A stretch of DNA of 64,000 bases from an uncultured Elusimicrobia bacterium (GTDB taxonomy: Bacteria; Elusimicrobiota; Elusimicrobia; 2-01-FULL-59-12). This document shows, one piece after another, positions 8,555 through 53,119 of this stretch (its first letter is position 1; every line of letters starts with the position of its first letter). The notes beneath the pieces were generated by a model. The model was not told the origin of the DNA. It did not search any database and was given only the letters and a program-made list of their open reading frames with translations. The stretch lies in NCBI GenBank assembly GCA_964604825.1, contig CAZSAL010000004.1:11400-75399 (forward strand). Direction: 5' to 3'. The position numbers were made by a program, and so were the translations under genes.

Positions 8555-8561
8555 GGCGTTA

Positions 8562-12819: not shown

Positions 12820-12831
12820 TGTCGACACTAA

Positions 12832-13251: not shown

Positions 13252-13276
13252 CGATTCATGCAAAGGGGGATGTACT

Positions 13277-13870: not shown

Positions 13871-13913
13871 ATGAGAAAGGAACGGCATCCTTCATGACTG
13901 TGAGACATAGCTT

Positions 13914-17090: not shown

Positions 17091-17101
17091 TTGCCAGAGG
17101 C

Positions 17102-20699: not shown

Positions 20700-20706
20700 T
20701 GCAGCT

Positions 20707-25400: not shown

Positions 25401-25544
25401 GTAGCCTTTTTAGATTTTCTAAGGGAATTTGCGGTTACAAGGAAGAGACAGCTGTTCTTTGCAACAGCAAATACGAGACTCGCAAATCTATTTACTAAGA
25501 AGTTTTCTTTCTTGGGTGACGAATTCGTAAATATTACCCTATGA
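22431..25544 (+). CDS. Rad50/SbcC-like SMC-family ATPase with a central zinc hook and an N-terminal extension of about 200 aa of unknown fold
   Basis: Walker A GPNGVGKT near aa 225. CPLC zinc-hook near aa 603, flanked by long coiled-coil sequence. C-terminal signature-like STGQRA plus Walker B MILIDD. ATGA overlap with the upstream gene. Confidence 0.75.
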
Positions 25545-25620
25545 GACCCTCGATCAAGTATTTAGAAGAATTGGCGCTCATCATTTGTTCGAATCGCCGT
25601 ACATCCTTAATAGGTATCTG

Positions 25621-27192: not shown

Positions 27193-28397
27193 AGCTTTCC
27201 GATTACGTAGCCTTCAATCCTCGTGTTTCTTTGGAAAAAGGAGTGAGGGCTAACTTTGTCTCAATGGATGCGATTAGGCCGGGGCTTCGTTATGTATACC
27301 CCGACCAGGAAAGAATAGTGAATGGCTCCGGGTCAAGATTTGTTCCAGGAGATATTCTCTTTGCACGCATCACGCCATGCTTAGAGAATGGAAAGATCGC
27401 TCAATATTCCGGTGATTCTAATGGTTTTGGCTCAACTGAGTTCTTCGTACTCCATGCGATCGAATCTTCAACCGATCCGGCATATCTCTATTACTTCTCG
27501 CAGAAATCTGATTTACGAGCCGCCGCTGCTAAGAGTATGACAGGGGCGTCGGGTCGACAAAGGGCAAACATCGACGCTTTAAAGGAATATCCATGCGTAT
27601 TCCCATCTTTGCGTGAGCAACGTTCTATTGCCGCCGTTCTTACGGCCTATGATGAGCTTATCGATAATACCCTCAAACGTATAAGAATTCTGGAAAAGAT
27701 CGCGCATTCTATCTTTCGAGATTGGTTCGTGTTATATCGCTTTCCTGGTCACGAAACTCAACGGTTTACCAAATCACCTCTAGGCCGAGTTCCAACAAAG
27801 TGGTCAGTTAAAAAGGCGACAGAGGCCATTTTTGTAAATCCTAAAACAGTGGTGAGAAAGCGTAAATCTATCCCTTTTGTCTCAATGAGTTGTCTTTCAG
27901 ATGATTCAATGATTATTCGTGACGGAGAGACTAGAAGTGCAGCTTCTGGGCCAAAGTTTCAGAAGGGCGATACGCTTTTTGCTCGCATTACTCCTTGCCT
28001 AGAAAACGGCAAAACAGGGTTTGTTCAATTTTTAGTGGGTGACGAGCCTGCTTGTGGATCAACTGAATTCATCGTCTTGCGTTCAAAGACCTTGTGTCCA
28101 GAATATGTGTACTTATTGGCACGTACAGATGAATTCCGCGGCAACGCCATTAAGAGTATGACCGGAGCAACCGGACGCCAGCGAGTCAGGGAGTCCTGTT
28201 TTGACAACTTTCTGATAGCTCATCCTGACACAGATACTTTGAAGAACTTCCATGATTGTGTAAGCCCAATCTTTCACCAAATATACTTGTTATTCTTGAG
28301 AAATCAGAATCTTCAACGGACCCGAGATTTGATCTTGCCCTGTCTTATCTCTGGCCAACTCGGACTGAGCCAAATGGAGAACCCCACCAAATCATGA
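27189..28397 (+). CDS. hsdS: type I R-M specificity subunit HsdS (two target-recognition domains)
   Basis: Internally duplicated conserved region: [12 protein letters not shown] ... GSTEF appears twice. ATGA overlaps on both sides. Confidence 0.8.
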
Positions 28398-31300: not shown

Positions 31301-31555
31301 AAGAAGGCCGAAGTGGAAGTGAAGAAGGTAGCGAAGCAATTATTAGAGAAATTAAAAGCTGAAAAACTCGTTCTCGACTGGCGGAAACGTCAGCAATCCC
31401 GGGCCGCTGTCCGGCTATGTATCGAAGAAGTTCTTGACCAACTACCGCAGGATCTCTATCCCAAGCCAGTCTATGCCAAAAAATGCGACCTAGCCTATCA
31501 GCACATCTACGAAGCTTACTATGGAAGTGGCGCAAGCATCTATCAGACGGCATGA
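28394..31555 (+). CDS. hsdR: type I R-M restriction endonuclease/helicase subunit HsdR
   Basis: SF2 helicase motifs including DEAH (VITDEAHRSQ). Start ATG 28394 overlaps the hsdS stop (ATGA). The listed start 28256 is internal to hsdS. Confidence 0.85.
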   Translation: MTLSGYSEDRLIQAPTVELFGKLKWDTADCMGEFDSGKSTLGRESKGDVVLVKKLRPALRKLNPDLPEEAISLAIEEITRDRSVMSPVAANKEIYEALKTVVKVSCRSQEAQEEETYTVNVVDWQTPANNDFFLASQFWVAGDMYTRRADLVGFVNGLPLVFIELKAAHRNLEEAYRGNLRDYRTAIPKLFWYNAFNVLSNGIDSRIGTITSDWEHFAEWKKINSEGEEGIISLETIIRGVCDKEKLLDLVENFTLFVEAKGGPVKMLAKNHQYLGVNNAVQALTQIKEKKGRLGVFWHTQGSGKSYSMVFFSQKVLRKKPGNWTFLVVTDRKELDTQIYRNFASAGAVTEQEAQATSGAHLKQLLREDHRFVFTLIQKFGTDGGAAFPVLSERSDIIVITDEAHRSQYDTLALNMRTALPQAAFIAFTGTPLIVGEEKTKDVFGDYVSVYNFRQSVIDGSTVPLYYENRIPELQLTNQHLNEDMETLLEATDLDENQQRRLEQEFSREYHLITREDRLKRIAEDVVEHFTGRGFQGKAMVISIDKATAVKMYDRVKTRWPIHLAKLRQELQSTQDAEQKADLERRITFMQTTDMAVVVSQGQNEVEDLKAKGVDITPHRYRMVHEDLETKFKTSEDPLRLVFVCAMWMTGFDVPSCSTIYLDKPMRNHTLMQTIARANRVCGEKLNGLIVDYAGVFRSLQKALAIYGTGVGGTATQGDMPVQAKQELIEGLRHHVALTVDLCESKGVDLSKIITSTAFERVKQMEDARETMIADDQTKKQFLASATSIHRLFKAILPDPAAKELSPQCSAIVRLADSIRSLAGPVDISEVMQDVEELLDDSVASAGYVIRDRGPEKRIDLSKIDFEALQKKFAAGYKRTEIERLKALLQGRLVVLVQKNRTRMDFLERFQKMMDEYNAGAVNIDEFFKQLVAFSRQLDDEDKRGITQNLSEEELAVFDLLTKPEPKLTKKAEVEVKKVAKQLLEKLKAEKLVLDWRKRQQSRAAVRLCIEEVLDQLPQDLYPKPVYAKKCDLAYQHIYEAYYGSGASIYQTA

Positions 31556-31676: not shown

Positions 31677-31783
31677 TTGGACCGTTGTACAGGCATTGAT
31701 CAGGAGACGAGCATGGAGCGCCAGAAAGGGTCTGGGTACCCCGGATTGGGTGGGGAACTTGGCAATCAGGGTAGGCAGGATAC

Positions 31784-31834
31784 GCATTTTGTAAACAAAA
31801 TGCCCTCGCCCCCGATTGCGGCCCTTCGGGCCGC
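31784..31834. promoter_or_regulatory. candidate oriT region: two perfect hairpins immediately upstream of mobC
   Basis: GCATTTTG-TAAA-CAAAATGC at 31784-31803 and GCGGCCC-TTC-GGGCCGC at 31818-31834, between the 33-nt motif and the mobC SD. Confidence 0.35.
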
Positions 31835-31886
31835 GGCTCTTGCGGGCTCCTGCCTTACCCTGATTGCCGACCTTAAGGAGGTTTCA

Positions 31887-32285
31887 ATGAAGAGAAAACC
31901 GGCATCCGAATTGTTGAGCAAGATTGTGAACGTGCGCGTACCTTATGACGAATACCATGGATTCCGCAAGCTGGCGGAGTATCTCAAAGTCAGCCCGGGC
32001 AGGTTGATCCGACACATCCTCCGCGAAAACTACATGGGACAATCCGATCCCTTGCCCGACCACATGAAAGGCTTCCGCGAGGCCGTTAACCAGCTGGCGG
32101 CAGCCGGCCGTAATCTCAATCAACTAGCCCGCGCTGCCAACAGCGGGCAACGGGTCGATCAAACTGAGGCCCAAGCTGTCATGGCTGAGATCCAAGCAGC
32201 GCTCAATCGAATGGGTGTGGAAATCAAAGCCTACATGTCGCGGCGCCGCAAACTGGAATGCGTTGAGCCCCGAAAAGCCGCTTGA
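31887..32285 (+). CDS. mobC: MobC-family relaxosome accessory protein
   Basis: MobC-like LNQLARAANSG core. Strong SD AAGGAGG 7 nt upstream of ATG 31887. The same frame is open back to 31677/31713, so a longer form cannot be excluded. Confidence 0.65.
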   Translation: MKRKPASELLSKIVNVRVPYDEYHGFRKLAEYLKVSPGRLIRHILRENYMGQSDPLPDHMKGFREAVNQLAAAGRNLNQLARAANSGQRVDQTEAQAVMAEIQAALNRMGVEIKAYMSRRRKLECVEPRKAA

Positions 32286-33243
32286 TTTCTCTTACCGGCC
32301 GCTCGTTAAAGGGCATGGCCTGGTCGTTGCCTTGCCGCTCGCAGAACGCCTGCGGGCGGCAAGGGGCGTTCCGCAGGCCGTGGTCAAAGTAGCTGGCTAC
32401 GGTCACGGGACCCCGGCAGCCAAGCGCCTCCTCCGATACATCAGCCGCAAAGGGGAATTGCCGCTCGAAACTGAATTGGGGGAGGTTCTGACCACCACCG
32501 ATGAACAGAAGGCCCTAGTGAATGATTGGGCCATCGATTTTGACGCACGAGGGGACAGCCGAGATACCGTTCACCTCATCTTCTCCATGCCGCCGGGGTC
32601 TTCTCCCGAAGCCTTGCGCCGCACCATCCGGACGGTTCTGCAGCGGCGGTTCCAGGGGCATGAGGCGGTCTTTGCCATCCATGAAGACAAGAAGCATCCG
32701 CATGCCCATGTGGTGGTCAAGATGTTCAATGTCGAAACTGAAAAGAAATTGCGCCTCAACCGACCCGACCTTTATCGCCTGCGCGAAATCTATGCTGAAG
32801 CCGCGCGAGAGGAAGGGGTTGAAATGGCCGTGTCACCCCGGGCCGCGCGGGGAATCGGACGAAAGGGCAGCCGTCGCGTCGCTCATCAGCTTCATCGCAA
32901 GGGGATCGTACCGCGCGCTGAGAAAGAGACCGCACGTGAAGTCCTTGAAAGTCTGGAAAAAGGCGATCTACGGGCGAAACCCTGGGAAGTCGCCATGCGG
33001 CGCCGCAATGACCTCGAAAGGCAAGCCTACCGAACCGAAGCCGAACGGCTCCGCACCGCCGCGCTCCAAAACGTCAAAGACAGGGACGCGCTCTTGAAGG
33101 CGGCGGCCGACCTCGAACGATTTTCCCGCGCGATGCCCACGCCCAAGACACTCCGCCAAACAATGATTGACCAGCTTCTCCAATCGCCGCGTCCCAAGAA
33201 TCCGGGATCCTCCCGGGACCACGACGGCGGTCTTGAGCGCTAA
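32215..33243 (+). CDS. conjugative relaxase (MobA/VirD2-like, MOBP/MOBQ-type)
   Basis: N-terminal Tyr region (VVKVAGYGHG) and histidine triad HEDKKHPHAHVVV. The exact start is uncertain because the ORF overlaps the end of mobC. Confidence 0.75.
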   Translation: MWKSKPTCRGAANWNALSPEKPLDFSYRPLVKGHGLVVALPLAERLRAARGVPQAVVKVAGYGHGTPAAKRLLRYISRKGELPLETELGEVLTTTDEQKALVNDWAIDFDARGDSRDTVHLIFSMPPGSSPEALRRTIRTVLQRRFQGHEAVFAIHEDKKHPHAHVVVKMFNVETEKKLRLNRPDLYRLREIYAEAAREEGVEMAVSPRAARGIGRKGSRRVAHQLHRKGIVPRAEKETAREVLESLEKGDLRAKPWEVAMRRRNDLERQAYRTEAERLRTAALQNVKDRDALLKAAADLERFSRAMPTPKTLRQTMIDQLLQSPRPKNPGSSRDHDGGLER

Positions 33244-39777: not shown

Positions 39778-40827
39778 ATGGAAGAACAGACACCCGAACC
39801 GAATCTGACTCCCGTGGTACCTGCCGAGATCCCGAGCGCTGTCCGTTCCGGGACGTCATGGAACCCGGGTCTTTGGCTCGCGCTGGCGGCGCTCTTGTTT
39901 CTGGCCTTCTTTTTCATGAAGGGGGGAAAGCGTAGAGCTCCAATGGCTGCAAATGAAAGCGACTTCAATACGGCAAGCGCCTCGCCCTCGACCGCCCCCA
40001 CGTTAGCGGTACCCACAATTCCTATTCTCCCACCGCCGGCGGCCTGGCAGAGACCGGAACAGGCGTCTCTGCGTGATGCGCGCCGCAATTCCCCCGTCGT
40101 CCTCTACACCAACACCGCCGCCACCCCCGGCGCGGGGTCGGGCGCCTCCTCCCCCGACCCCGCGGCCGGCCCTCCCATGCCTTCCGGGTTTCATCCCACC
40201 AGCAGCGGCTCGGCCCGTTCGTCGACCCTGGGCGACCGGGAATTCATCATCGCGGAAGGAAAACTCCTGGATGCGGTCCTCGAAACAGGCATCAACACGG
40301 ATCATCCGGGCATGCTCCGGGCGCTTATCTCGGACGATATCTACGGAGATTCCGGCCGCACGGTGCTCTTGCCGCGAGGCTCACGGCTGATCGGGCAGTA
40401 CGACGCGGACGTCGCTCAGGGACAATCCCGCGTCTTCGTCATCTGGCAGCGCGCCATCAGACCGGACGGCATCGACATCGCCTTGGGTTCCGGTGGGACT
40501 GATTCTCTCGGGGAAGCCGGGCTTTCAGGCGATGTGAACCGTCATTTCTTCACGATGTTCGGGGCGGCCACGCTTTTGTCTATTATCGGGGCTTCGGCTG
40601 CGACCATCGGCGTCGGTGCCCAGGATGCTGGGAACTCCCTGGCGACCTATCGGAGTTCGATGGCGCAGGGGTTCAGCGAGGCGACCAACAATGTGATGGG
40701 CGTGTTTGTGCGCATAAAACCCACGATCTCCGTCCCGCCCGGGACTTCGGTCAAAGTATTTGTGGCCCGTGATCTCTATTTCGATCCGGCGGCTATCGCT
40801 TCCCGCCGGGTCCAGGTTATTCCATGA
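39778..40827 (+). CDS. virB10: T4SS core protein VirB10/TrbI
   Basis: TM helix, Pro-rich linker, C-terminal VirB10 beta-barrel domain. Confidence 0.8.
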   Translation: MEEQTPEPNLTPVVPAEIPSAVRSGTSWNPGLWLALAALLFLAFFFMKGGKRRAPMAANESDFNTASASPSTAPTLAVPTIPILPPPAAWQRPEQASLRDARRNSPVVLYTNTAATPGAGSGASSPDPAAGPPMPSGFHPTSSGSARSSTLGDREFIIAEGKLLDAVLETGINTDHPGMLRALISDDIYGDSGRTVLLPRGSRLIGQYDADVAQGQSRVFVIWQRAIRPDGIDIALGSGGTDSLGEAGLSGDVNRHFFTMFGAATLLSIIGASAATIGVGAQDAGNSLATYRSSMAQGFSEATNNVMGVFVRIKPTISVPPGTSVKVFVARDLYFDPAAIASRRVQVIP

Positions 40828-41798
40828 GCCGAGTAGCCCTTCGAACGTTTCTATCGCCTCTTGATTCCCTCTTGAGCGAGGATGACGTGAGCGAGATCTC
40901 AATCAATCAGCCCGGGGAAGCCTGGGTCGAGCGCAAAGGGGAAATGAAGAGGCTCGATCTGCCTGCTCTCGATCCCGAACACCTTCGTCTCATGGCGGAT
41001 TTAATCGCGGAATCCTCCCAACAGCAACTGTCGCCCGAAAAGCCGCTTCTTTCCGCAACTCTGCCCGAGGGGCACAGAGTTCAGATTGTTCTCCCGCCCG
41101 CCGCTGAAGACTTCTGCTGTTCGATACGAAAACCGGGCGTCATTCACTACGACCTGGCCGCTTATGAAGAACAAGGGGCCTTTGCCGAAACCGCCACCGC
41201 TCATGAGGTATCGCCCGACGAAGCTCTCCTTACCGGCCTTTTGCGCCATCACGACATTCCGACCTTCATCCGCACCGCGGTCCAAAGTCGCCGCAATATC
41301 CTGATTTCAGGGGGAACTTCGACCGGCAAAACGACTTTCTTAAACGCTTGTCTTCAGGCCATCCCCGATCACGAAAGGTTAGTCACTGTGGAAGATGCCC
41401 GCGAAGTGCGCGTGCGCCAGCCCAACCGCGTTCATCTTCTGAGTTCGCGCGGCGGCCAGGGGCGAGCCCAGGTCACGCCTCAACAGCTGATCGAAGCGTC
41501 TTTACGCCTGCGGCCCGACCGCATCATCATGGGCGAATTGCGAGGGGTCGAAGCCTTCGCTTTTCTGCGCGCGATTAATACGGGTCATCCGGGCTCGATC
41601 GCAACGATTCACGCTGACTCACCCGAGATGGCCTTTGAACAACTGGCCCTCATGGTCCTGCAAGCCGATCTCGGCATGACTCGGCCGCAAGTTCTGGACT
41701 ACGTTCGTCATGCCATTCCCATAGTGCTTCAGCTCCACCGAGGCGACGCCGGACGTCGGGTGGTCTCGGAAATCTACTACGCGGGGTATTCCTCATGA
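40824..41798 (+). CDS. virB11: T4SS ATPase VirB11
   Basis: Walker A GGTSTGKTT; PulE/VirB11 family. Confidence 0.85.
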   Translation: MSRVALRTFLSPLDSLLSEDDVSEISINQPGEAWVERKGEMKRLDLPALDPEHLRLMADLIAESSQQQLSPEKPLLSATLPEGHRVQIVLPPAAEDFCCSIRKPGVIHYDLAAYEEQGAFAETATAHEVSPDEALLTGLLRHHDIPTFIRTAVQSRRNILISGGTSTGKTTFLNACLQAIPDHERLVTVEDAREVRVRQPNRVHLLSSRGGQGRAQVTPQQLIEASLRLRPDRIIMGELRGVEAFAFLRAINTGHPGSIATIHADSPEMAFEQLALMVLQADLGMTRPQVLDYVRHAIPIVLQLHRGDAGRRVVSEIYYAGYSS

Positions 41799-43537
41799 AT
41801 CAAACACGCGGCATCTGGTGGTCGGCGGCAGGCCTCACCGCATTGATCGCATGGTCTTGGCTCGCCGGCTTTGTCTTTTGCGTTCTGGCACGACTTCCGT
41901 TCCATCAAGTCACGCCCTGGACGCTCTGGCATTACTTTCCCTTTTACTTTACTTCCCCTCCGGTTCGACAGCTCATGAACACCTCCACCATCGCCGCCTT
42001 TGTTCTGTTGGCGCTTCTGGTCGGGTCCTGGATCAAGAATCAGAAGCTCATCAGCCCTTACGGCGATGCCCGCTGGGCGTCGTGGGGTGAGGTGCGGCGA
42101 GCGGGCCTCCTCTCCCGGACTGGCATTTTGCTGGGACGGCGCGCGGGACGGTTCCTCTGCATGCCGGGCTGGGAGCACGTGATGTGTTTTGCGCCGTCCG
42201 GCTCCGGCAAGGGAGTAGGCATTGTCATCCCGAACCTTCTCCATTGGTCAGATTCCGCGATCGTCCACGACGTGAAGGGGGAGAATTTCCGCCTCACGAG
42301 CGGTTACCGCGCCGCGCATGGACAAAAAGTGTATTTCTTCAATCCCGGTGATCCGGATGGGCGCACTCATCGGTACAACCCCTTCCAGTTCGTAAGCGAC
42401 GATCCAGGACTTCGAATCGACGATCTTCAGAAAATTGCCCATCTCTTATTGCCCAAGCACGATTTCTGGGAAAACGAGGCCCGTACGCTTCTCGTGGGTT
42501 TGGCGCTTCATTTATTGGATGAATCGGGCGCAGCGGTGTCTTTCGGCAACATTCTCTGCACCATCCGGGAATCGAACTTTTTTGATTATGTGCATGACCT
42601 GTTGACGCGGCGCCGGGATGGGATGAATCCCGTAGCCTGCATGGCCTTAAACGCTTACATTCAAAAAGCCGAGAAGGAACGAAGCGGAGTCCTTTCCACA
42701 TTGAGTTCCGCCCTGGAGCTTTGGGCAAACCCTCTGATCGACGCCGCCACCTACGCGAGCGACTTCGACCTGCGCCGCTTCAAGAAAGAACGGATAACGC
42801 TTTATGTAGGGGTCTCCCCGAACAACCTCCACCGTTTGCGGCCTCTCCTTCAGATCCTTTACCAGCAGGCCACCGACATTCTCACCGAAAAGGAACCCGA
42901 CCCAAAGACAGAACCTTTCGGCGTGCTCTTTCTGATGGACGAATTCGCCAGCCTCGGGCGCATGACGCAGTTTGAGCAGGCGAGTGCCTATTTTCGCGGC
43001 TACCGGGTCCGATTCATGATGATCATTCAGGACTTACCTCAGTTGGAGCGGCATTATGAACGGACGGGCCTTTATTCGTTTCTCGGAATGTCCAAGGTAA
43101 AAGTGACTTTCGCCTCCGGCGATTATGAGACGGCGGAAGTCATCTCCAAATATCTGGGGAATTTCGGAGCTCGTACCGAATCCGAGAGTCAAAGCGAGCC
43201 TACGGGATCGCTTTGGCTTTCAGGCCGCACCAGCCGGTCGTTCTCTGAGACTTCTCGAGCCCTGCTCCTTCCGCAGGAAATCCTTCAGCTCCCACCGGAT
43301 GAGGAAATCGTCATGATCGAGGGACTGCCTCCCATTCGCGCAAGCAAGATCCGCTATTTTCAAGAATCCGTCTTTACGTCCCGGATGATTCCACCGATAC
43401 CGATTACTCCCATCACACCCATTCTGCGTGAGCTCAAAGTCGTTTCCTTGCCTCCGGCGCGCGAATTGAGCGAGCAGGAAAAGGATCAGTTCCGGCAGCA
43501 ATACGCGATCGACGACCATCCTCAAGACGCCGCATGA
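41795..43537 (+). CDS. virD4: type IV coupling protein VirD4/TraG
   Basis: N-terminal TMs, Walker A APSGSGKG, TraG/VirD4 body. Confidence 0.85.
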   Translation: MNQTRGIWWSAAGLTALIAWSWLAGFVFCVLARLPFHQVTPWTLWHYFPFYFTSPPVRQLMNTSTIAAFVLLALLVGSWIKNQKLISPYGDARWASWGEVRRAGLLSRTGILLGRRAGRFLCMPGWEHVMCFAPSGSGKGVGIVIPNLLHWSDSAIVHDVKGENFRLTSGYRAAHGQKVYFFNPGDPDGRTHRYNPFQFVSDDPGLRIDDLQKIAHLLLPKHDFWENEARTLLVGLALHLLDESGAAVSFGNILCTIRESNFFDYVHDLLTRRRDGMNPVACMALNAYIQKAEKERSGVLSTLSSALELWANPLIDAATYASDFDLRRFKKERITLYVGVSPNNLHRLRPLLQILYQQATDILTEKEPDPKTEPFGVLFLMDEFASLGRMTQFEQASAYFRGYRVRFMMIIQDLPQLERHYERTGLYSFLGMSKVKVTFASGDYETAEVISKYLGNFGARTESESQSEPTGSLWLSGRTSRSFSETSRALLLPQEILQLPPDEEIVMIEGLPPIRASKIRYFQESVFTSRMIPPIPITPITPILRELKVVSLPPARELSEQEKDQFRQQYAIDDHPQDAA

Positions 43538-43590
43538 CGCACCCTCGCGGAGCCTGAAGCCCGAGGCATTACCTCAAAGGAGATACCACC

Positions 43591-44145
43591 ATGGCCACCA
43601 AAGCCGCAAAGACAACGAAAGAAAAAGTAGCGCCTGCGCCGGAGACCAAAACCCCGCCCGCCAAAGCTCCCGAGCCGACTCAACAGCCGAGTCCATCAAC
43701 GCCTGCGCCGCAGCAGACGTCTGTCGCCGATGCGCCCGCCGTATCCACACAAGCTTCCGTTGCGCCGCCGAATGGTGTTCGCATGCCGGCGATCAATGAC
43801 GTCCGCGTAGCGGGACGCCTCACTCGCGATCCCGTCATTCGGGAAGTCGGCAGCCAGAAAGTCGCCAACTTCGACATCGCCGTTGAGAAACGCTACCGCG
43901 ACGCACAGAACCAGTGGCAGAAGCAGGTCTCCTTCGTCCCCTGCGCCGTTTGGGGAGTCGTGGCCGACCGCGCGAGGGAATTCCTAAAGAAAGGCAGTCC
44001 GGTCTATCTCGAAGGACGGCTTCGCTCCCAGTCCTGGCAGACCCGCGATGGTCAGAAGCGTTCCATCATGCGTCTGGAAGCCTTCAAAGTGCAGTCGTTG
44101 GCCAGAGGGCAAGCGCGGAGCCAGGGACAGGAAGTCGGCGACTGA
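43591..44145 (+). CDS. ssb: single-stranded DNA-binding protein with a Pro/Ala-rich disordered N-terminal extension of about 65 aa
   Basis: SSB OB-fold core (RLTRDP...VWG...YLEGRL...W...). Lacks a canonical acidic C-terminal tail. Confidence 0.7.
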   Translation: MATKAAKTTKEKVAPAPETKTPPAKAPEPTQQPSPSTPAPQQTSVADAPAVSTQASVAPPNGVRMPAINDVRVAGRLTRDPVIREVGSQKVANFDIAVEKRYRDAQNQWQKQVSFVPCAVWGVVADRAREFLKKGSPVYLEGRLRSQSWQTRDGQKRSIMRLEAFKVQSLARGQARSQGQEVGD

Positions 44146-44154
44146 GGCTAAGCC

Positions 44155-44565
44155 ATGGTTGATACGAACCCAGCTCCAAATAATGCGTATCCGCCTGACG
44201 ACGTGTCCCGTGCAAATGACTTCCGCCTGGCGGGACGCGTCGCGGGCGATGCCATCTTCCGCGGTCTTGACGGGCGAAGGTTCCTCCAATTCCGCCTGGC
44301 CGTCGAAAGAGACTACAGGGATGTTTCGGACCGGGAAGAAAAGCAGGTCACCTATGTTCCGGTGGCCGTTGGGGGAACGTTGGCGACTTACTGCCGGCCA
44401 TTTCTGCGGGATGGGACCCCGATCTATATCGAAGGACGGGTGCACTCACATACCGTGAAAACTCCGGACGGCGGTCAACGTACTCAATTGCGCTTCGACG
44501 CCTTCAAGGTGCAGTCGCTCGCGCGGGGCCAAAGCCGGAGCCAGGGACAGGACATTGCAGACTAA
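44155..44565 (+). CDS. SSB-like OB-fold protein (paralogue 2)
   Basis: Paralogous to the upstream ssb; shares the C-terminal FKVQSLARGQ.RSQGQ tail. Confidence 0.65.
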   Translation: MVDTNPAPNNAYPPDDVSRANDFRLAGRVAGDAIFRGLDGRRFLQFRLAVERDYRDVSDREEKQVTYVPVAVGGTLATYCRPFLRDGTPIYIEGRVHSHTVKTPDGGQRTQLRFDAFKVQSLARGQSRSQGQDIAD

Positions 44566-44589
44566 ACAGCACCGTCGGGAGGTTTATCC

Positions 44590-44985
44590 ATGAATGACAC
44601 AGTTCGGAAACAAGCACCGCCGGGCCTTCTGACGCAGAAGGCTCCGCGGATGCTGTCGGTCAACAAGGTTCGTCTGGCAGGACGTCTGACCCAGGACCCG
44701 GAAATCCGGTCGGCGATCGGCGACAAAATGATCGTGCATTTGAATCTGGCACTTGAGCGTCCTTACCAAGGCAGTACCGGACATCTGCGACAAGAGCTCA
44801 CGTTTGTTCCGGTCACCGTTTGGGATAGCCTGGCGGACAGTGCGACCCGGGATCTCAAAAGGGGAAGTCCAATCTACGTTGAAGGCAGGCTTAAGAGTGA
44901 TCGATGGAAGGCCGGAAGCGGAGAGGTTTGTTCCGCGCTGAAAATCGAAGCCTCCAAACTCCAGATGCTTTCAGCGGCGGCTTAA
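44590..44985 (+). CDS. SSB-like OB-fold protein (paralogue 3)
   Basis: Paralogous OB-fold core (RLAGRLTQDPE...YVEGRL); divergent C-terminus. Confidence 0.65.
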   Translation: MNDTVRKQAPPGLLTQKAPRMLSVNKVRLAGRLTQDPEIRSAIGDKMIVHLNLALERPYQGSTGHLRQELTFVPVTVWDSLADSATRDLKRGSPIYVEGRLKSDRWKAGSGEVCSALKIEASKLQMLSAAA

Positions 44986-45275
44986 GGCGCCGCGCGCCTT
45001 GGCCGGCGCAGGCTTTCCCACTCGGCTAGAAATCCCTGTCGGCTAAGCTTGACTCTTTTGAGCCGATCGCTAGTCGTTGCGGCCAAAGCCAAGCAGGCGC
45101 TGCACAACGAATACACATACTGTTCCTTCCAGGAGAGTAAGACTGTGAGACCGGCCGTCAACAAAATACTGATTCCCTGAGCATAAGCCTGTAAATCTAT
45201 GAAATTTCCTTTCTTTGCCACTTCATCGCGGTACTGGATTCTCGCGTCTTTTGTTCCGTTCTTCGTCATTGTCAT
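44982..45275 (-). CDS. hypothetical small membrane protein (two predicted TM helices)
   Basis: Minus-strand ORF in the 720-bp gap; start taken at MTMTK with an AAGGA upstream. Only weak support. Confidence 0.25.
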   Translation of the reverse strand: MTMTKNGTKDARIQYRDEVAKKGNFIDLQAYAQGISILLTAGLTVLLSWKEQYVYSLCSACLALAATTSDRLKRVKLSRQGFLAEWESLRRPRRAAP

Positions 45276-45706
45276 TGGTCCTTTCGATGCTTCGCTATCC
45301 GCGAAGACACCGCGAACCAACGGCGAGCAATGAAGGGTCCCGCCCAGGGATCGACCGGCCCGCAGGGATCGGGGAGACCTGGAACATTCAGGGCGTCCTG
45401 AGAAGGCGTCACCACGCCGGTTCATGCCGTGGATACATCACGGCATGGAGGGGCGACCGAGCGTCAGCGACGGAGAGGGAGGAGGGGAGGGATAAATGCG
45501 AAGCGTTTATGCTCGCCAGCGACCTTGACGAGATCCATCACAGTCGCCGGCCATGTGGCGACCCCTCGCCCCGCGAGCTGGGGCAGCTGCTAAAATGGAG
45601 CGTCTACGGGGGAAAGCTCAGCCCCAACCACTATTCTCACTAAGGCCTTCGATAGCTGCTGTCGAAGCGTTGACTTGCCTCCTAAAAATGGGTAGAAAAT
45701 GCCCCA

Positions 45707-45764: not shown

Positions 45765-45959
45765 ATGGACAAAAAACCGACAATTCAGGAGCTGGAAGCT
45801 CTGCTAAACAGCGAAGAGGAGACTCCTATCCAGATTCTACCCAACGGGGAAATCCGACCTGTGGGCCAGGTGAACCCTGCAGATCTAGGAACAAAAAAAC
45901 CTCTGACGATGAAAGAAAATCTGGGGGGCGAGTACGGGGGGCAGCCTGGTGGATATTAA
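45765..45959 (+). CDS. small acidic protein (64 aa) ending in Gly-Gly-Tyr; candidate ubiquitin-like / Pup-like modifier or tag
   Basis: AGGAGG SD. C-terminus ...GGQPGGY. 11-nt overlap with the GTG start of the E2-like gene. Confidence 0.4.
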   Translation: MDKKPTIQELEALLNSEEETPIQILPNGEIRPVGQVNPADLGTKKPLTMKENLGGEYGGQPGGY

Positions 45960-46326
45960 CCGGATTCAGCGAGAATTTTTGGAAGCACAAAAGACGTTCG
46001 CGTATTTAGAACTGCATCCGACCGCAGATGGACGGGTATTCGCGAAAACTGCCCTTCAAACGTCCATTCAAATGTACGTTTTATCGATTAAATTCCCTGA
46101 CAATTACCCTTATGAAATGCCCAGCGTTTATGTTGATACGCCTCCAATCGCCATTTCACCGCACCGGTACAATAGCGGCAATATATGTTACCTGCATCAT
46201 GCGATGTGGAATCCCGGCATTCACCAACTTTCCTTTGTTATCGGACGCGCGGCAAAATGGTTAAACAAGTACGAAATTTGGAAACGCAATGGTGGCCAGT
46301 GGCCCGGCGCAGAGATAAAGCACTAA
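45949..46326 (+). CDS. ubiquitin-conjugating-enzyme (E2/UBC)-like protein with candidate catalytic Cys
   Basis: UBC-like HPN-region analogue FPDNYPYEMPSVYV and catalytic-Cys context NSGNICYLHH. Confidence 0.55.
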   Translation: MDINRIQREFLEAQKTFAYLELHPTADGRVFAKTALQTSIQMYVLSIKFPDNYPYEMPSVYVDTPPIAISPHRYNSGNICYLHHAMWNPGIHQLSFVIGRAAKWLNKYEIWKRNGGQWPGAEIKH

Positions 46327-46335
46327 GAGGTCATC

Positions 46336-46866
46336 TTGAAAATTGAATTTAAAACTCTAAATATGATGCAGCTCAGAAAATCTCCCGGAGAGGTCCTGGA
46401 TCGTGTTGCCCGAGATGGGGAGGTCTTCGTTGTGGAAAGGAACGGGCAGCCCAAGGCTTGTTTGGTCCCCGTCTCATTCCTCATGCCGGATGTATCGCCT
46501 GACCGCATTACCGATGAGCTAAACAAGCTCCGCGATAAAAATGAAAATTTCAAGGTGACCATTAGCGACGGCAAAGAGTTGGAAATCAGCTTCCACGAAG
46601 TCGCCGCGGGCGAAAACGTTGTGGTGACCGTCACTCTACCTCACGGATATCCCAATTCTGCCCCTCGAATTCAAGTTCCACAGTTGCCGTCGAACACGCC
46701 CAAACGATGGCAAGATGGTTCCTTGTCCATTTTTGGAGCGACGGCGACGTGGAATACAAAAAATCACGACGTCGTTTATGCGCTGGGCGAGGCGAGACGA
46801 TGGCTACGACAATATGCAAAGTGGCGCAAAAATGGTGAGTGGCCGACAACGCCGGAGGGCGCTTAA
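46336..46866 (+). CDS. E2-like paralogue lacking the catalytic Cys (UEV-like), with a Phd/YefM-antitoxin-like N-terminal extension
   Basis: LPHGYPNSAPRIQV and DGSLSIF (Cys replaced by Ser) are paralogous to the upstream E2-like. N-terminus QLRKSPGEVLDRVARDGEVFVVERNGQPKACLVPV resembles Phd/YefM. Confidence 0.5.
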   Translation: MKIEFKTLNMMQLRKSPGEVLDRVARDGEVFVVERNGQPKACLVPVSFLMPDVSPDRITDELNKLRDKNENFKVTISDGKELEISFHEVAAGENVVVTVTLPHGYPNSAPRIQVPQLPSNTPKRWQDGSLSIFGATATWNTKNHDVVYALGEARRWLRQYAKWRKNGEWPTTPEGA

Positions 46867-47720
46867 TGAGCGAGGACCGAATTTTTGAGCGAATCGAATC
46901 ACTTTTTGACATTCAGCTGTTAGCGCCCGTCAAAGTCCTAATCGCTGGATGTGGGTCCGGCGGCGGGAGCGTAGCCTTGGCTCTTGTCATGTCTGGGATC
47001 CGCCACTTCGCGCTATTAGATCGCGATGTGTTAGGCCCGGAAAATGTCATCCGGCATGTCTGCGGAAGACGGTTTATCGCCAGGAAAAAAGTGGACGCTC
47101 TCGCCGAAGTTCTGCTGGATCGAAACCCGAACGCCGATATACGAAAAATAGAAGCGGACATCATGAGCTATCCCGATATCGAAACGGAGATTAAAGCGGC
47201 GGATGTGGTCGTGCTCGCGACCGACAATGAACCGTCCCGCTACAAAATTAACGAAATCTGCGTTCGAAATGCCATCCCCTTTGTGGTCGGTCGCGTCTTC
47301 ACCCGAGGAATCGGCGGGGAAGTCTTCAGTTACAGGCCCGAATCGGGGGGATGTTTGGCTTGTCTTGAAGCGTCCTTACAGCGGACCCCGTTTAGAGAGG
47401 GCATCAAAGAGATTGACTTGGTTTCTGAGGAAGAACGGCAAAAAGTCTATGGGATGGAAATATCGGAAATAAAGGATTCCCCCGGACTGATCATCGACAT
47501 ATCCTTTATTACCTCCTTTCATGCGCGCTTTGTCTTAGACGCAGTCGCGCGACGGTTGAAAGAACGTCCGAAATATCTGAGCTTGATTGACGAAAATTAT
47601 CTCATTTGGGGAAATCGTCCCACCCACCCCTTTAAAAGGCATTTTCAGGTGCAGCGAATCATTCTGAATCGCCAAGAGGCTTGCGGAGTTTGTTCCGGGA
47701 AGGTTGGGGCCGATGTTTAG
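46839..47720 (+). CDS. E1-like ThiF/MoeB-family activating enzyme
   Basis: Rossmann GCGSGGG motif and a ThiF-like central region (ATDNEPSRYKINE). Confidence 0.8.
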   Translation: MADNAGGRLMSEDRIFERIESLFDIQLLAPVKVLIAGCGSGGGSVALALVMSGIRHFALLDRDVLGPENVIRHVCGRRFIARKKVDALAEVLLDRNPNADIRKIEADIMSYPDIETEIKAADVVVLATDNEPSRYKINEICVRNAIPFVVGRVFTRGIGGEVFSYRPESGGCLACLEASLQRTPFREGIKEIDLVSEEERQKVYGMEISEIKDSPGLIIDISFITSFHARFVLDAVARRLKERPKYLSLIDENYLIWGNRPTHPFKRHFQVQRIILNRQEACGVCSGKVGADV

Positions 47721-48615
47721 ATCAAAAACTTTGCAGATTCGCGTGTCGATCGCGAAAAAGGCTCTTGAGGCCATCTTTGACGAATGCGACCGGTTTGATA
47801 TGGATGAAACGGGTGGACGAATTATCGGCGACTATCGAAAAAAAGATTTGCGGTATGACATCGAGGTTCGAGGGGTCATTGGGCCGGGTCCCAATGCCAA
47901 GCGAACGGCCACGAGTTTTTTTCAGGACGGGGATTATCAGGAAAAGGTGTTCCGGTCTGTTGAACAAAGTCATCCGGATATCGAACATCTGGGTAATTGG
48001 CACACGCATCATGTGAACGGCTTGTCCACGCTCAGCTCGGGAGATAAAGCAACTTACCAAAACATCGTGAATCATGATCAACACAATACTGACTTCTTTT
48101 ATGCAATTCTGGTCGTCCGGAAAACTCCCGGCCGAAATCAACGCTACGACGTCAAACACTATTTCTTCCGACGTGATGATCGCGCAGTTTATGAGATACC
48201 CGACTACGAGGTTCAGATCGTCGATACGCCCATTCTTAGCCCGCTGCTCTCAGAAGGAACCGTTTCTGCGCCCACCCCATCGCGGCAATACGATGTTCTA
48301 GGCTACGCCAACCAGGAACGCGTCAGAGATCAGGAATTCTTTTCCGAGTTCTTTCCGGCGTTCAGACCCTTATTGTCCAAGAGCACGGGCACTTTCTATT
48401 GGAAAGGAAAATTGGACCTAATCGATGGGCGCGCAATCGATGTTCTGGCCATGGAAATCGCCGGCACATCGTCTTATTCCGTTACCGTGTCAGGACAAAA
48501 GATACCCACCTTGGACACCATCGCAAATTATAGGGACCGTGCTTTTAAATCAGCCCGGCAGGCCGTCATGGATCTGGAGAGAGATATGAATCAAGAAATG
48601 TACCGCAAGAAATGA
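47704..48615 (+). CDS. JAB/MPN (JAMM) metalloprotease-domain protein
   Basis: Upstream Glu, then HTHHVNGLSTLSSGD (HxH...SxxD JAMM-like motif). Confidence 0.7.
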   Translation: MGPMFRSKTLQIRVSIAKKALEAIFDECDRFDMDETGGRIIGDYRKKDLRYDIEVRGVIGPGPNAKRTATSFFQDGDYQEKVFRSVEQSHPDIEHLGNWHTHHVNGLSTLSSGDKATYQNIVNHDQHNTDFFYAILVVRKTPGRNQRYDVKHYFFRRDDRAVYEIPDYEVQIVDTPILSPLLSEGTVSAPTPSRQYDVLGYANQERVRDQEFFSEFFPAFRPLLSKSTGTFYWKGKLDLIDGRAIDVLAMEIAGTSSYSVTVSGQKIPTLDTIANYRDRAFKSARQAVMDLERDMNQEMYRKK

Positions 48616-48619
48616 CCCC

Positions 48620-49465
48620 ATGAACATTATTACGGTCAATGTGGGTCAAGGCGCTCTCTCCATAGTCCGGCATCAGACGGAAGCCATTATTGTAGATTCG
48701 AGAATTCCTCCGTCGGATGACGACACTGTAGCCTTTGTCAAAGGAATGCTGGCCACGTCATTGAAAGGCCACTATGTGAAAGGGTTAGTATTGACAGGAT
48801 TTGATAGCGACCATCTGGATGTTGTCGGTCTCTCGATCGTTCTCCCCAAGTATCGGCCCGATTGGGTCATGTATCCCAAATACTATAAAGACAGCGAAGA
48901 GGCCAAATTGGCGTTTGATCTCATCACCGAACAAGAAGACCTTCGACGTGGTTCCGCCAATCCGTTGGAAAGAGTATCCGTCCGGCTTGACGTGCTGTCC
49001 AACCGCAAACTTTCCGGTCTCTCCTCCAACTTCGACTTTGAGCTATTCTCGCCGCACATTGCGGATATGGATAATTCGAATAATTCCAGCATTGTTCTCA
49101 AATTGACAGGAATAGGGGCAGGTGGATTTTCCTACTTGATCACTGGCGATACGGAAAACGAACGATGGAAAACGATCAGCGAATTGTTCGGAGGTGCCTT
49201 GAAGGCACATGTTTTGGCAGCGCCCCATCATGGGTCAAAAAATACCACTCATCCCGCCTCATTGCTTCATATCAATCCGCACACCGTTCTGATCAGCGCC
49301 GGCGTAGACAGTCAATATGGCCATCCCAGTCCAGAAGCCGTTAAAGTCTATCAACGAGTTGCAAGATATGTTTTCTCGACCAATATGGGAAACGGCGTTT
49401 CACTCCTCACTCAACCAGGTCTCACCGAGATCACGACGACACTAATCCCGAGTTCGGATGCATGA
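48620..49465 (+). CDS. metallo-beta-lactamase-fold protein (ComEC C-terminal-domain-like)
   Basis: LTGFDSDHLD and APHHGSKNT motifs of the ComEC-type MBL domain. Confidence 0.6.
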   Translation: MNIITVNVGQGALSIVRHQTEAIIVDSRIPPSDDDTVAFVKGMLATSLKGHYVKGLVLTGFDSDHLDVVGLSIVLPKYRPDWVMYPKYYKDSEEAKLAFDLITEQEDLRRGSANPLERVSVRLDVLSNRKLSGLSSNFDFELFSPHIADMDNSNNSSIVLKLTGIGAGGFSYLITGDTENERWKTISELFGGALKAHVLAAPHHGSKNTTHPASLLHINPHTVLISAGVDSQYGHPSPEAVKVYQRVARYVFSTNMGNGVSLLTQPGLTEITTTLIPSSDA

Positions 49466-51637: not shown

Positions 51638-53119
51638 ATGCCAACGAAAGAAGTCGCACAGCTGCAAATGGCCGTAAAAGAGATCGTGGAAGGGTCGAAT
51701 TGCCGCAGCCGGATGAATCCCGGCAAGTTCGAGGAGCTGGTGCAGAACGTCAAGAAAGTGGGGATTTTGGAACCGGCGCTTGTGAGGAGGGACGCGGAAG
51801 GGAAGGTCATTCTGATCGCAGGGCATCGGCGCCTGGCGGCGGCCAAAGCCGCTGGGTTGGAAAATATACCGGTGCGGCTCTTGGAAGTGGATGAGAAGCA
51901 GGCTGCCGAAATACAGACCTTGGAGAATCTCCACCGGGAAGACCTTGCGTCGATGGATGAAGCTCGGGCCTTCAAACAACTCCTGGATGGGGGTTCGCAC
52001 ACGATCGAGTCACTGGCCGCTCAAATAGACAAGTCACCTACCTACGTCTATCGGAGCCTGAGGTTGCTCGAATTGCCGGCCAAAGCAATCAAGGCTCTGG
52101 AGGAGGGGATTATCACCACCGGCCACGCACAGCAAATCCTGCGCGCCCCGGAGAAAAACGCCGAAGCGCTCGTGGCCTTTGCGACCACACGTATGGAATG
52201 GCAGAAACGCTATCCCAGCGTTTCGGAACTGCGGGAATACGTCGAGAAACGCATCGCCAAGGACCTTGCGGCGGCGCCGTTTCCGAAAGACGTACCGTAC
52301 GCAGAACAGGTCGCGTGCAACGCCTGCCCGTTCAATACCGGCAACCAGAACGTGCTCTTTGATGGCGCAACCAAGGGTCACTGTACGAACCCCGGCTGCT
52401 TCAACCGCAAAACAGCCGCCTACTACAAAGAGCTACAGACCACGGCAGCCGCCAGGTACGCGGGGCTGAAGTTCCTGGGAACCGCTTCAGATAACGGGTA
52501 CGCTTCGGGCCCCCAACAGATCAAAGGGGCGTATGTGGTGGAAAAGCTCGACGACAAAATCAAGAAGGCCATTCAGGCCAAACCGGATCAGTTCGGGTTC
52601 GGGATCGTAAAGCCCTCACGCTGGGGAGGGAAGAAGGCGCGTGTCGTTCTTCTCTGCAAAGAAGCGAAGTTGGCGGGGGTGAAGGAAGTGAATCGTGCAC
52701 CGGCCTATCGGGAACAAACCCCTGAAGAGCGCGAACGAGAGGAGTTTATTCGAAGCCATGTTCAAAGAACCTACGCTGCGCTTGCCGTCGAAATGCTGGA
52801 GTTTGATAAAGAGGACCTCCTCGCGCTTCTACAGGAGGAATGGGACGATGATTGGAAACGTCGCCGGGTCCTGCCATTCCTGGAAGCCTCGGGAGTTTCA
52901 GAATCAGATGCAGAGGAGGGTAAGTTTCCGGCAGAGGTTCTGGAAAAGAAAAGCCGGGATTCGTTGATCCAACTCGTGCTCTTGTCGATGCTCAATGACA
53001 ACAGCGATTCGATCGGCTCACTTTTGGAGGTCAAAAAAGTGAAAGTGCAGGAAGTGCTCAATAAAGCTCAGGCCGAGGCGCTCAAGGTCTGGAACGAGAA
53101 GCATCCCCAGGCCGCATAA
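51638..53119 (+). CDS. ParB/Spo0J/KorB-like N-terminal-domain protein
   Basis: ParB N-terminal domain (ILEPALVRR...IAGHRRLAAAKAAGLENIPV); SD AAGGAG. Confidence 0.75.
   Translation: MPTKEVAQLQMAVKEIVEGSNCRSRMNPGKFEELVQNVKKVGILEPALVRRDAEGKVILIAGHRRLAAAKAAGLENIPVRLLEVDEKQAAEIQTLENLHREDLASMDEARAFKQLLDGGSHTIESLAAQIDKSPTYVYRSLRLLELPAKAIKALEEGIITTGHAQQILRAPEKNAEALVAFATTRMEWQKRYPSVSELREYVEKRIAKDLAAAPFPKDVPYAEQVACNACPFNTGNQNVLFDGATKGHCTNPGCFNRKTAAYYKELQTTAAARYAGLKFLGTASDNGYASGPQQIKGAYVVEKLDDKIKKAIQAKPDQFGFGIVKPSRWGGKKARVVLLCKEAKLAGVKEVNRAPAYREQTPEEREREEFIRSHVQRTYAALAVEMLEFDKEDLLALLQEEWDDDWKRRRVLPFLEASGVSESDAEEGKFPAEVLEKKSRDSLIQLVLLSMLNDNSDSIGSLLEVKKVKVQEVLNKAQAEALKVWNEKHPQAA

Follow-up and report, generated by a model that had tools for sequence, protein, structure and literature searches.

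We analyzed a 64,000-nucleotide stretch of DNA from an uncultured Elusimicrobia bacterium (GenBank assembly GCA_964604825.1, contig CAZSAL010000004.1; hereafter the window), in which three consecutive genes, SSB1, SSB2, and SSB3, encode proteins of the SSB type (SSB, single-stranded DNA-binding protein). All three are intact members of the SSB family, and they lie in the transfer module of a conjugative element, directly behind the gene for the coupling protein VirD4. The array is not a chance arrangement, as it recurs in independent metagenomes far beyond what chance would give. On balance, and with some reserve, we favor the interpretation that these proteins coat the element's single-stranded DNA (ssDNA) during conjugative processing or transfer, uncoupled from the SSB interactome of the host, a role predicted from their sequences and setting.

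Three SSB-family genes directly follow virD4

The array and its borders comprise the following features, with the SSB coordinates taken from the list of open reading frames (ORFs):

41795-43537, + strand: virD4/traG, type IV coupling protein (PF02534 at 399.9 bits, plus TraG-D_C and TrwB_AAD_bind); last gene of the type IV secretion system (T4SS)
43577-43582, + strand: Shine-Dalgarno sequence AAGGAG, 8 nt ahead of the SSB1 ATG, read from the sequence
43591-44145, + strand: SSB1, 184 aa, the backbone SSB, with a disordered N-terminal extension (residues 1 to ~63), an OB fold (~68-170), and a tail (171-184, ARGQARSQGQEVGD)
44155-44565, + strand: SSB2, 136 aa, the younger duplicate of SSB1, with an SSB1-type tail (ARGQSRSQGQDIAD) and an ATG 9 nt past the SSB1 stop codon
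44590-44985, + strand: SSB3, 131 aa, the older paralogue, tail-less, with its own GGGAGG Shine-Dalgarno sequence and a conserved N-terminal peptide (..QAPPGL..K..RM)
44982-45275, - strand: small convergent ORF, ~95 aa, with two hydrophobic segments recognized by eye; right-hand border of the array

The virD4 stop codon and the SSB1 start are 53 nt apart, and the gaps within the array are 9 nt (SSB1-SSB2) and 24 nt (SSB2-SSB3). virD4 lies directly 5' of SSB1 in every related locus. An initial annotation of this DNA had placed three consecutive SSB-type genes at 43591-44985, right after a coupling-protein gene, and both the coordinates and the neighborhood proved exact. It had also allowed that profile searches might put the proteins outside the SSB OB-fold family; all three score above the 26-bit threshold of the Pfam SSB family PF00436 (SSB1 85.2, SSB2 50.5, and SSB3 77.5 bits). 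The narrower family TIGR00621 (threshold 53.95 bits) accepts SSB1 (94.9 bits) and SSB3 (84.6 bits), with SSB2 below its cut-off at 33 bits. In the Pfam, NCBIfam, and PHROG scans, SSB families were the sole confident matches of each protein, PHROG 44 (SSB) being the best in PHROG; the marginal matches were a weak one to phrog_26861 for SSB1 and SSB3 and a sub-threshold one to the tRNA_anti-codon OB family for SSB3. PriB, a primosome component and dimer of single OB folds, has its gene in the rpsF-priB-rpsR operon. The genes described here stand in a T4SS module and not among ribosomal-protein genes, and an NCBIfam scan gave no PriB-specific family match.

The three proteins are well diverged (identity of 48% between SSB1 and SSB2, 41% between SSB1 and SSB3, and 36% between SSB2 and SSB3) and have in common the strand motifs N-x-V-R-L-A-G-R, P-[VI]-Y-[LIV]-E-G-R, and K-[VL]-Q. 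An AlphaFold2 (AF2) model of SSB1, built from a 28-sequence family alignment, has a predicted confidence (pLDDT) of ~90 over residues 68-170 and below 50 at residues 1-58 and 176-184. Foldseek comparison of this model with solved structures returned SSBs as the top matches, including the tetrameric Helicobacter pylori SSB (2vw9; TM-score 0.89-0.91, rmsd 1.5-1.6 A, TM-scores here and below being normalized to target length). The AF2 model of SSB2 is likewise an SSB-type OB fold, close to Staphylococcus aureus SsbA (8gw5_B; TM-score 0.90, rmsd 1.4 A). By sequence, SSB2 matches the second OB fold in the two-OB SSB of Deinococcus better than any other solved structure (1se8, E 3.9e-12), and two-OB SSBs were also among the high-ranking matches of the profile search.

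SSB1 and SSB2 carry a conserved non-canonical tail

None of the three window proteins (0/3) ends in the D-D-[DL]-[IL]-P-F tip. SSB1 ends in FKVQSLARGQARSQGQEVGD and SSB2 in FKVQSLARGQSRSQGQDIAD, and the two ends follow a common 14-aa pattern, ARGQxRSQGQ[ED][VI][GA]D, with no Gly/Pro/Gln-rich linker leading to an acidic tip. SSB3 ends in KLQMLSAAA, only three residues beyond its OB fold. Across 28 SSB1 and 16 SSB2-type sequences, the tail S-x-G-Q-E-[VI]-G-[DE] is nearly invariant; its net charge is 0, its last residue is Asp or Glu, and the final residue in SSB2 is always acidic. The initial annotation had noticed that two copies have the same unusual C-terminus, and the matching SSB1 and SSB2 tails bear this out. 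Its further description of all three copies as lacking acidic tails is right for the canonical tip and too broad for SSB1 and SSB2, whose short conserved tail still ends in an acidic residue.

Identity at third codon positions between the SSB1 and SSB2 tails is 0.5, compared with a gene average of 0.53. We rejected gene conversion as the source of the common tail because its third-position identity is not above the gene average, which argues that the tail is conserved by selection on the peptide rather than by recent conversion. The nearest relatives outside the element, ~50% identical to the OB fold of SSB1, are canonical SSBs ending in DDIPF or EEVPF, indicating that the tip was lost inside the element lineage. 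Among 18 more distant SSBs from species-representative genomes, none has the element-type tail and 12 have an acidic end of the form [ILV]PF.

Ahead of its OB fold, SSB1 has a low-complexity region (residues 1-63) containing 13 Ala, 13 Pro, 9 Thr, and 6 Lys. The initial annotation had proposed a Pro/Ala-rich extension of about 65 aa, close to the ~63 aa found here, which are predicted to be disordered. The SSB1 family alignment (28 sequences) shows conservation of the length of the extension, of the motifs VAD[AG]P and GVRMP, and of the tail. The ratio of nonsynonymous to synonymous substitution (dN/dS) is 0.10-0.44 in the extension and 0.03-0.16 in the OB fold plus tail, indicating that the extension is translated and constrained, more loosely than the OB fold. 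A mis-called start codon was considered as its source and rejected: an upstream Shine-Dalgarno sequence and ATG are present in the loci examined, and indels in the region are in-frame only. The MA[NT] start and VAD[AG]P, conserved in the 28 SSB1 sequences, also support the upstream start.

The paralogues differ in predicted ssDNA contacts

The positions equivalent to the E. coli SSB contact residues W40, W54, F60, and W88, as placed by alignment only, read Y/F/W/W in SSB1 and SSB3 and Y/Y/G/V in the window SSB2. In SSB2 the F60 equivalent is always Gly, Ser, or Ala in the alignment (aromatic in 0/15 orthologues), and the W88 equivalent is variable, being W in about half of the orthologues and V in the window copy. 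By this alignment, SSB2 is predicted to lack at least one aromatic ssDNA-contact residue. It also has GRVAGDA in place of the GRLT.DP motif. The window copies contain three (SSB1), no (SSB2), and two (SSB3) tryptophans, and their isoelectric points (pI) are 10.3 for SSB1 (net charge +12), 8.9 for SSB2, and 9.9 for SSB3.

The array is conserved across related elements with one to four copies

At least 10 distinct related contigs, which come from seven or more different samples, have the backbone of the element. In every related contig long enough to show it, the array lies between virD4 and the convergent ORF. Contigs from ERZ25039480 (L004, L008, and L009) have frameshifts typical of long-read assemblies and were used only with intact frames. 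Clustered at 90% identity, the SSB1-type proteins of public metagenomes fall into at least 50 groups, all ~180-195 aa long with the same N-terminal extension and tail. A 50%-identity library of 1.84 billion representatives gave one cluster with the full SSB1 architecture (P0014); a more distant member, P0125, has the N-terminal extension and ends in KGQSQSKGQEIGD. Among species-representative genomes, we found one close relative, a 5.8-kb contig binned as Elusimicrobiota, and the family is otherwise known from metagenomes only. Identity to any PLSDB plasmid entry is less than 40% for SSB1 and no more than 40% for VirD4.

The number of SSB genes varies between elements. One copy is present in L003 and in the P0027 contig, two copies (SSB1 and SSB3) in L029 and L030, three in the window and in L004, L006, L008, and L009, and four in L005. 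The triplet that the initial annotation had suggested seeking in other conjugative elements thus exists in L004, L006, L008, and L009, with one, two, or four copies in others. SSB1 stands, and evidently functions, alone in some elements and copy number ranges from 1 to 4, which makes a strict 1:1:1 heterotrimer unlikely. The heterotrimeric complex offered in the initial annotation is disfavored by this variation and by the fit of the SSB1 and SSB2 folds to homotetrameric SSBs; mixed tetramers are possible.

In one of the one-copy elements (L003, 10676-11215; GCA_936410565.1), the place of SSB2 and SSB3 is taken by a gene for a 179-aa, very acidic, Cys-rich protein with no precomputed Pfam match. 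The P0027 contig has a 208-aa gene at this position, and its equivalence is assumed from position. The acidic Cys-rich protein could be a DNA mimic with an anti-restriction function or a zinc-binding factor.

In a neighbor-joining tree, SSB1, SSB2, and SSB3 form separate orthologous clades, and the element copies are monophyletic with respect to other SSBs. SSB3 is the first to branch, and the extra copy of L005 is a divergent sister of SSB2. The tree places two successive duplications in the history of the array, in which SSB3 split off first and SSB2 later arose from SSB1. The tandem triplication of the initial annotation thus holds as a description of three tandem copies, which by the tree go back to two separate events and not to one.

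Selection on the genes was estimated as dN/dS between orthologues by the Nei-Gojobori method, at dS of ~0.6-1.7, where synonymous sites are near saturation. The values are 0.07-0.24 for SSB1, 0.13-0.25 for SSB2, and 0.14-0.25 for SSB3, with 0.05-0.12 for virD4 and virB11. Together with the separate clades, dN/dS of 0.07-0.25 indicates purifying selection and argues that no copy is a pseudogene. The initial annotation had raised the possibility that two of the three might be pseudogenes; all are full-length and constrained. Its broader proposals, that the copies are specialized and that the array is not a single housekeeping SSB, agree with the orthologous clades held at these dN/dS values, with the paralogue-specific termini and residue changes, and with the fixation of the array in a conjugative backbone from virD4 to the convergent ORF.

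The SSB genes are most likely expressed with the T4SS

Each of the three genes has a purine-rich, Shine-Dalgarno-like sequence ahead of it, which is strong in the case of SSB1 and SSB3 (GGGAGG for the latter) and a weak 4-nt GAGG in that of SSB2. AAGGAG stands ahead of SSB1 also in L003, L005, L006, L029, and L030, and SSB3 has a strong Shine-Dalgarno sequence of its own in every locus compared. The spacing between SSB1 and SSB2 is 8-9 nt in every locus, and this fixed distance suggests translational coupling of the two genes. We found no sigma-70-like promoter or terminator from the virB genes through SSB3, using an E. coli-type consensus that may not be that of the host lineage. Given the close packing, the same orientation, the Shine-Dalgarno-like sequences, and the lack of an intervening promoter or terminator consensus, the SSB genes are most likely co-expressed with the T4SS.

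The three SSB genes in the window are in one reading frame (offsets of 564 and 999 nt), with two stop codons between SSB1 and SSB2 and one between SSB2 and SSB3. Read-through or fusion of the three was rejected, as the frame is not common to the genes in L005 and L009 and two stops separate SSB1 from SSB2; the common frame is probably a coincidence.

A stem-loop in the spacer between virD4 and SSB1 (43543-43566, CCTCG...CGAGG) shows some compensatory changes. It is weak (consensus of -2.1 kcal/mol, six pairs) and is missing in relatives with a spacer of 18-30 nt. At the other end of the array, a GC-rich palindrome (AAGGCGC-CGC-GCGCCTT, 44983-44999) spans the stop codons of both SSB3 and the convergent ORF. 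The convergent ORF itself has no Pfam or PHROG match. An ORF of 91-102 aa on the minus strand follows the array directly in L001-L006, L009, L029, and the P0027 contig; in one-copy elements, it follows the gene for the acidic Cys-rich protein. The ORF was called at 71 aa in L008 and at 78 aa in L030, where the contig ends.

Element context and variable cargo

The window sequence is identical to part of a 151-kb Joint Genome Institute (JGI) metagenome contig, which points to an integrated conjugative element (ICE) on a chromosome-sized contig. The conjugation module is complete and has the gene order MobC/NikA, relaxase, VirB3-B11, VirD4, SSBs, cargo, ParB, RadC, and sigma factor. Apart from virD4 and the array, its features are as follows:

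31677-32285: MobC/NikA-like protein, from the profile scan
32215-33243: relaxase of the MobA/VirD2 type (PF03432), 342 aa, consisting of the nuclease domain alone
between the relaxase and VirB11: VirB3, VirB4, a T4SS-family (PF07996) protein, VirB6, VirB8, VirB9, and VirB10
40824-41798: VirB11
45949-46326: E2 (cargo)
46336-46866: Phd-like/E2-like protein (cargo)
46839-47720: E1 ThiF (cargo)
47704-48615: JAB peptidase (cargo)
48620-49465: nuclease-like protein with weak LmuA/Avs-effector-like matches (cargo)
51638-53119: ParB, 6.6 kb downstream of the array with variable cargo between, followed by RadC and a sigma-70 family factor

In the conjugation module, we saw neither a gene for a helicase nor a helicase domain. 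A perfect 9-bp inverted repeat (31784-31803, GCATTTTGT-AC-ACAAAATGC) in the region of the 5' end of the MobC/NikA-like ORF is a candidate for an element associated with the origin of transfer (oriT).

The cargo genes at 45949-49465 form a ubiquitin-like conjugation set without a cyclase. The contents of this slot differ between relatives, which have AbiE, HipA, SIR2-like, PLD-SNF2, or DUF4326 genes there, and the presence of different modules in one slot marks it as a cargo hotspot.

Between the array and the cargo, ~300 bp past the array, lies a non-coding block (45290-45570) whose nucleotide sequence is conserved in L003, L004, L005, L006, and L009, also where dS of the coding regions is above 1 (e.g., ACCGAGCGTCAGCGACGGAGAGGGAGGAGGGGAGGGATAAATGCGAAGCGTTTATGCTC...CGACCTTGACG). 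Inside it are a hairpin (45421-45449) whose sequence differs from locus to locus and a possible leader ORF of 7-11 codons (MRSVYA...) behind a GGAGG, in which an Arg codon varies synonymously. Rfam gave no matches, either for the whole window or for the local region. The block is a candidate oriT, ssDNA promoter or single-strand origin, or regulatory leader of the cargo slot.

To the left of the transfer genes is a defense cluster (20485-31555) with a Lamassu-like LmuB SMC ATPase (22431-25544), a 649-aa ORF upstream of it, and, after LmuB, the type I restriction-modification genes hsdM, hsdS, and hsdR (25585-31555). Positions 1-18960 of the window hold an aryl-polyene/flexirubin-like biosynthetic cluster. 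Encoded there are, among others, an aromatic amino-acid ammonia lyase, two ketosynthases, and an AMP-ligase together with an ApeI-like dehydratase; the cluster also has an MMPL-like transporter and a halogenase-type flavoprotein.

Coating of element ssDNA and alternative explanations

In the interpretation to which we lean, the SSBs would bind one or more of three kinds of ssDNA: the strand that is displaced once oriT has been nicked by the relaxase, rolling-circle intermediates, and the transferred strand. Their ancestor would be a canonical SSB that lost its Gly/Pro-rich linker and D-D-I-P-F tip. DNA coated by proteins with no such tip would not recruit the SSB-interacting enzymes of the host (exonucleases, RecQ/RecO, PriA, and others), and the SSBs would compete with RecA and hinder its loading, so that the transfer intermediate might be protected and the SOS response dampened. 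SSB1, very basic at pI 10.3, would be the core protein, and its N-terminal low-complexity region may, speculatively, replace the missing linker. The tail SQGQE[VI]G[DE] is a candidate for the docking peptide of a partner that the element encodes, possibly, and again speculatively, the coupling protein. Docking there would also allow SSB1 to be transferred into the recipient, as reported for F-plasmid SSB and VirE2. SSB3 would be an old tail-less companion, and SSB2 a duplicate of recent origin whose DNA contacts are weakened; it is probably coupled to SSB1 in translation and may co-assemble with it.

Parts of this scheme have precedents. The SSB of pED208 is translocated via the T4SS and suppresses mating-induced SOS in recipients (PMC8406263), and SSBs are enriched among the protective genes of plasmid leading regions, or anti-defense islands, where toxin-antitoxin genes occur as well (PMC11541004). 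In the gonococcal genetic island (GGI), SsbB is a tetramer that binds ssDNA with high affinity and does not complement an E. coli ssb deletion (PMC3334931).

Several points weigh against it. The SSB genes stand at the end of the T4SS block and not in a recognizable leading region. Translocation signals of VirB/D4 T4SSs are usually positively charged C-termini, unlike the acidic-ended tail of net charge 0. DNA secretion was unaffected when gonococcal SsbB was deleted or over-expressed (PMC3334931), indicating that transfer itself can do without the SSB of an element. Simple coating does not explain why there should be two to four paralogues. DNA binding, oligomeric state, partner binding, and translocation are predictions from sequence, and the promoter and terminator scans used an E. 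coli-type consensus that may not apply to the lineage.

The strongest rival, which we nonetheless consider unlikely, is that the array encodes relaxosome or helicase accessory factors like HelP (ICEBs1), Orf22/Orf23 (Tn916), or OrfL/OrfM (ICESt3). OB-fold paralogues would then act on the displaced strand at oriT, making the host UvrD/PcrA helicase processive and/or stimulating the relaxase, with no bulk coating. With a relaxase of only 342 aa and no helicase in the module, the element would need a host helicase, and SSB2 has, by alignment, lost aromatic DNA contacts. HelP-type genes adjoin the coupling-protein gene and come mostly in twos, with members of separate clades, one of them ~20 aa longer (PMC3542172), mirroring SSB1/SSB2 versus SSB3. 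However, HelP has no significant sequence similarity to SSB (PMC3542172), whereas the window proteins are clear members of the SSB family, and SSB1 and SSB3 keep, in the alignment, all four aromatic positions and the motifs of tetrameric SSBs. HelP also works with MOBT relaxases in Firmicutes, while the relaxase here is of the MobA/VirD2 type and the T4SS of the VirB type, with the array after the coupling-protein gene rather than before it and the relaxase not adjacent. Less probable than this, and doubtful in our view, is an obligate hetero-oligomeric SSB, with one defined complex built from subunits that have or lack the tail and bind DNA fully or weakly. It would more plausibly be a mixed tetramer than a heterotrimer, with RPA or the asymmetric two-OB dimer of Deinococcus as its analogue. 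The invariant 8-9 nt between SSB1 and SSB2, read as coupling to match stoichiometry, would suit it, as would the strand motifs common to all three proteins, which presumably lie at the subunit interfaces. A Phe60 equivalent that is never aromatic is expected of a partner-dependent subunit, and the match of SSB2 to the second OB fold of 1se8 recalls that asymmetric OB combinations are a known solution. Yet syntenic elements with one to four copies, SSB1 alone in some, have no fixed stoichiometry, and the common motifs are also kept in ordinary homotetrameric SSBs. An elaborated form joins this assembly to element ssDNA coating: a mixed, conjugation-specific, RPA-like tetramer of SSB1/SSB2 and SSB3, its tip read by VirD4, would enter the recipient with or ahead of the transferred strand and hide the DNA there from the host SSB interactome and immunity, with the SSB1 arm, in place of the canonical linker, driving cooperative or condensate-like coating. 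We regard this as a long shot of much the same order.

A role in anti-defense seems very unlikely to us. Here the altered SSBs would shield the strand from ssDNA nucleases, or titrate or evade SSB-sensing immunity, and copy number would reflect an arms race. The array does border a hyper-variable slot of defense or toxin-antitoxin modules (E2/E1/JAB here; AbiE, HipA, SIR2-like, or PLD-SNF2 elsewhere), copy number and the SSB2 contact residues vary between close relatives, and the acidic Cys-rich protein of one-copy elements is reminiscent of DNA-mimic anti-restriction proteins; SSBs are, moreover, counted among the protective genes of anti-defense islands (PMC11541004). Set against this, dN/dS of 0.07-0.25 does not indicate diversifying selection, the paralogues are orthologous across elements and not rapidly replaced, and the neighboring cargo resembles defense rather than anti-defense genes. 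The SSBs matched no PADLOC or anti-defense family, although no scan of an anti-defense library was made. Hardly credible, finally, is that the genes are redundant duplicates, decaying pseudogenes, or a housekeeping SSB of the host. What could prompt this idea is SSB2, which is under the TIGR00621 cut-off and in the window has no tryptophan. All three ORFs are nevertheless full-length, each with a Shine-Dalgarno-like sequence, their separate orthologous clades are held at dS of 0.6-1.7 with dN/dS of 0.07-0.25, and the array is always within the conjugative backbone; we rejected the pseudogene explanation on dN/dS and orthology. A replicative SSB without the interaction tip is itself improbable, judging from what is known of such proteins (PMC3334931, PMC5945547).

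Comparison with known systems

SSBs of mobile elements are usually seen as spare copies of the host protein. The array described here is built differently, and purifying selection maintains it in this uncultured lineage: a conserved peptide stands in place of the host-interaction tip, the low-complexity region is shifted to the N-terminus, and the gene has multiplied to two to four specialized paralogues that are physically tied to the coupling-protein gene. Should the tail turn out to be a docking signal of the element, or should the copies assemble with one another, the array would be a simple natural system in which to learn how conjugative elements insulate their ssDNA intermediates from host repair and immunity, how SSB-partner specificity is rewired, and what linker and tip each contribute. 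If neither is true, it is still a well-documented case of SSB subfunctionalization on an ICE.

Among the closest parallels are the Ssb proteins of F/pED208 and ColIb-P9, likewise bona fide SSB-family proteins on conjugative elements and thought to coat the transferred strand. They are single-copy and keep the canonical acidic tip. Plasmid SSB genes lie near oriT, often by psiB and often behind Frpo ssDNA promoters (PMC11541004), whereas the array described here consists of one to four tandem copies after virD4 that have lost the tip; none of the ORFs scanned has a PsiB or ArdA domain. SsbB of the GGI and the SSBs of clc-like ICEs resemble the array in being SSBs inside a T4SS-bearing integrated element and in forming a family apart from housekeeping SSBs (PMC3334931). 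Compared by gene context, GGI ssbB is single-copy in a parA-parB-...-ssbB-topB cluster and co-transcribed with topB, while the window array follows virD4 with no topoisomerase gene in its neighborhood.

HelP, Orf22/Orf23, and OrfL/OrfM offer another likeness, as usually paired, diverged OB-fold genes by a coupling-protein gene, where one protein is longer than the other by a C-terminal segment of ~20 aa. DNA unwinding or the function of the relaxosome depends on them (PMC3542172, PMC12614216), and HelP makes the host PcrA/UvrD helicase processive in Firmicute ICEs (PMC3542172). The element has a comparable layout, in that the array abuts virD4, the tailed SSB1/SSB2 and tail-less SSB3 are in separate clades, and two-copy elements have SSB1 and SSB3. 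The resemblance is in layout only: the window SSBs do not belong to the HelP family, and the element is not associated with a MOBT relaxase. OrfL and OrfM are, in addition, mainly monomeric, and HelP-type genes precede the coupling-protein gene in Firmicute elements with MOBT relaxases.

Outside conjugation, the tail-less SsbB of B. subtilis and S. coelicolor and SsbB/SsbC of S. aureus are also tip-less SSBs, present as a second or third copy with an OB fold of ~110-130 aa and each specialized in a single DNA transaction (PMC5945547, PMC3616714). These chromosomal proteins differ in forming no tandem arrays, in having no N-terminal low-complexity extension, and in serving competence or sporulation rather than conjugation. 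The two-OB SSB of Deinococcus-Thermus resembles the array in bringing two diverged SSB OB folds into one assembly. Its folds are fused in one chain and it keeps the canonical C-terminal tip, whereas the OB folds of the window are encoded by separate genes and their co-assembly is a proposal. SSBs of mobile elements were known before, as were SSB paralogues without a tail and OB-fold conjugation factors that come in pairs. What is new is the combination: two to four bona fide SSB paralogues fixed behind virD4, with a conserved non-canonical tip and a disordered N-terminal arm.

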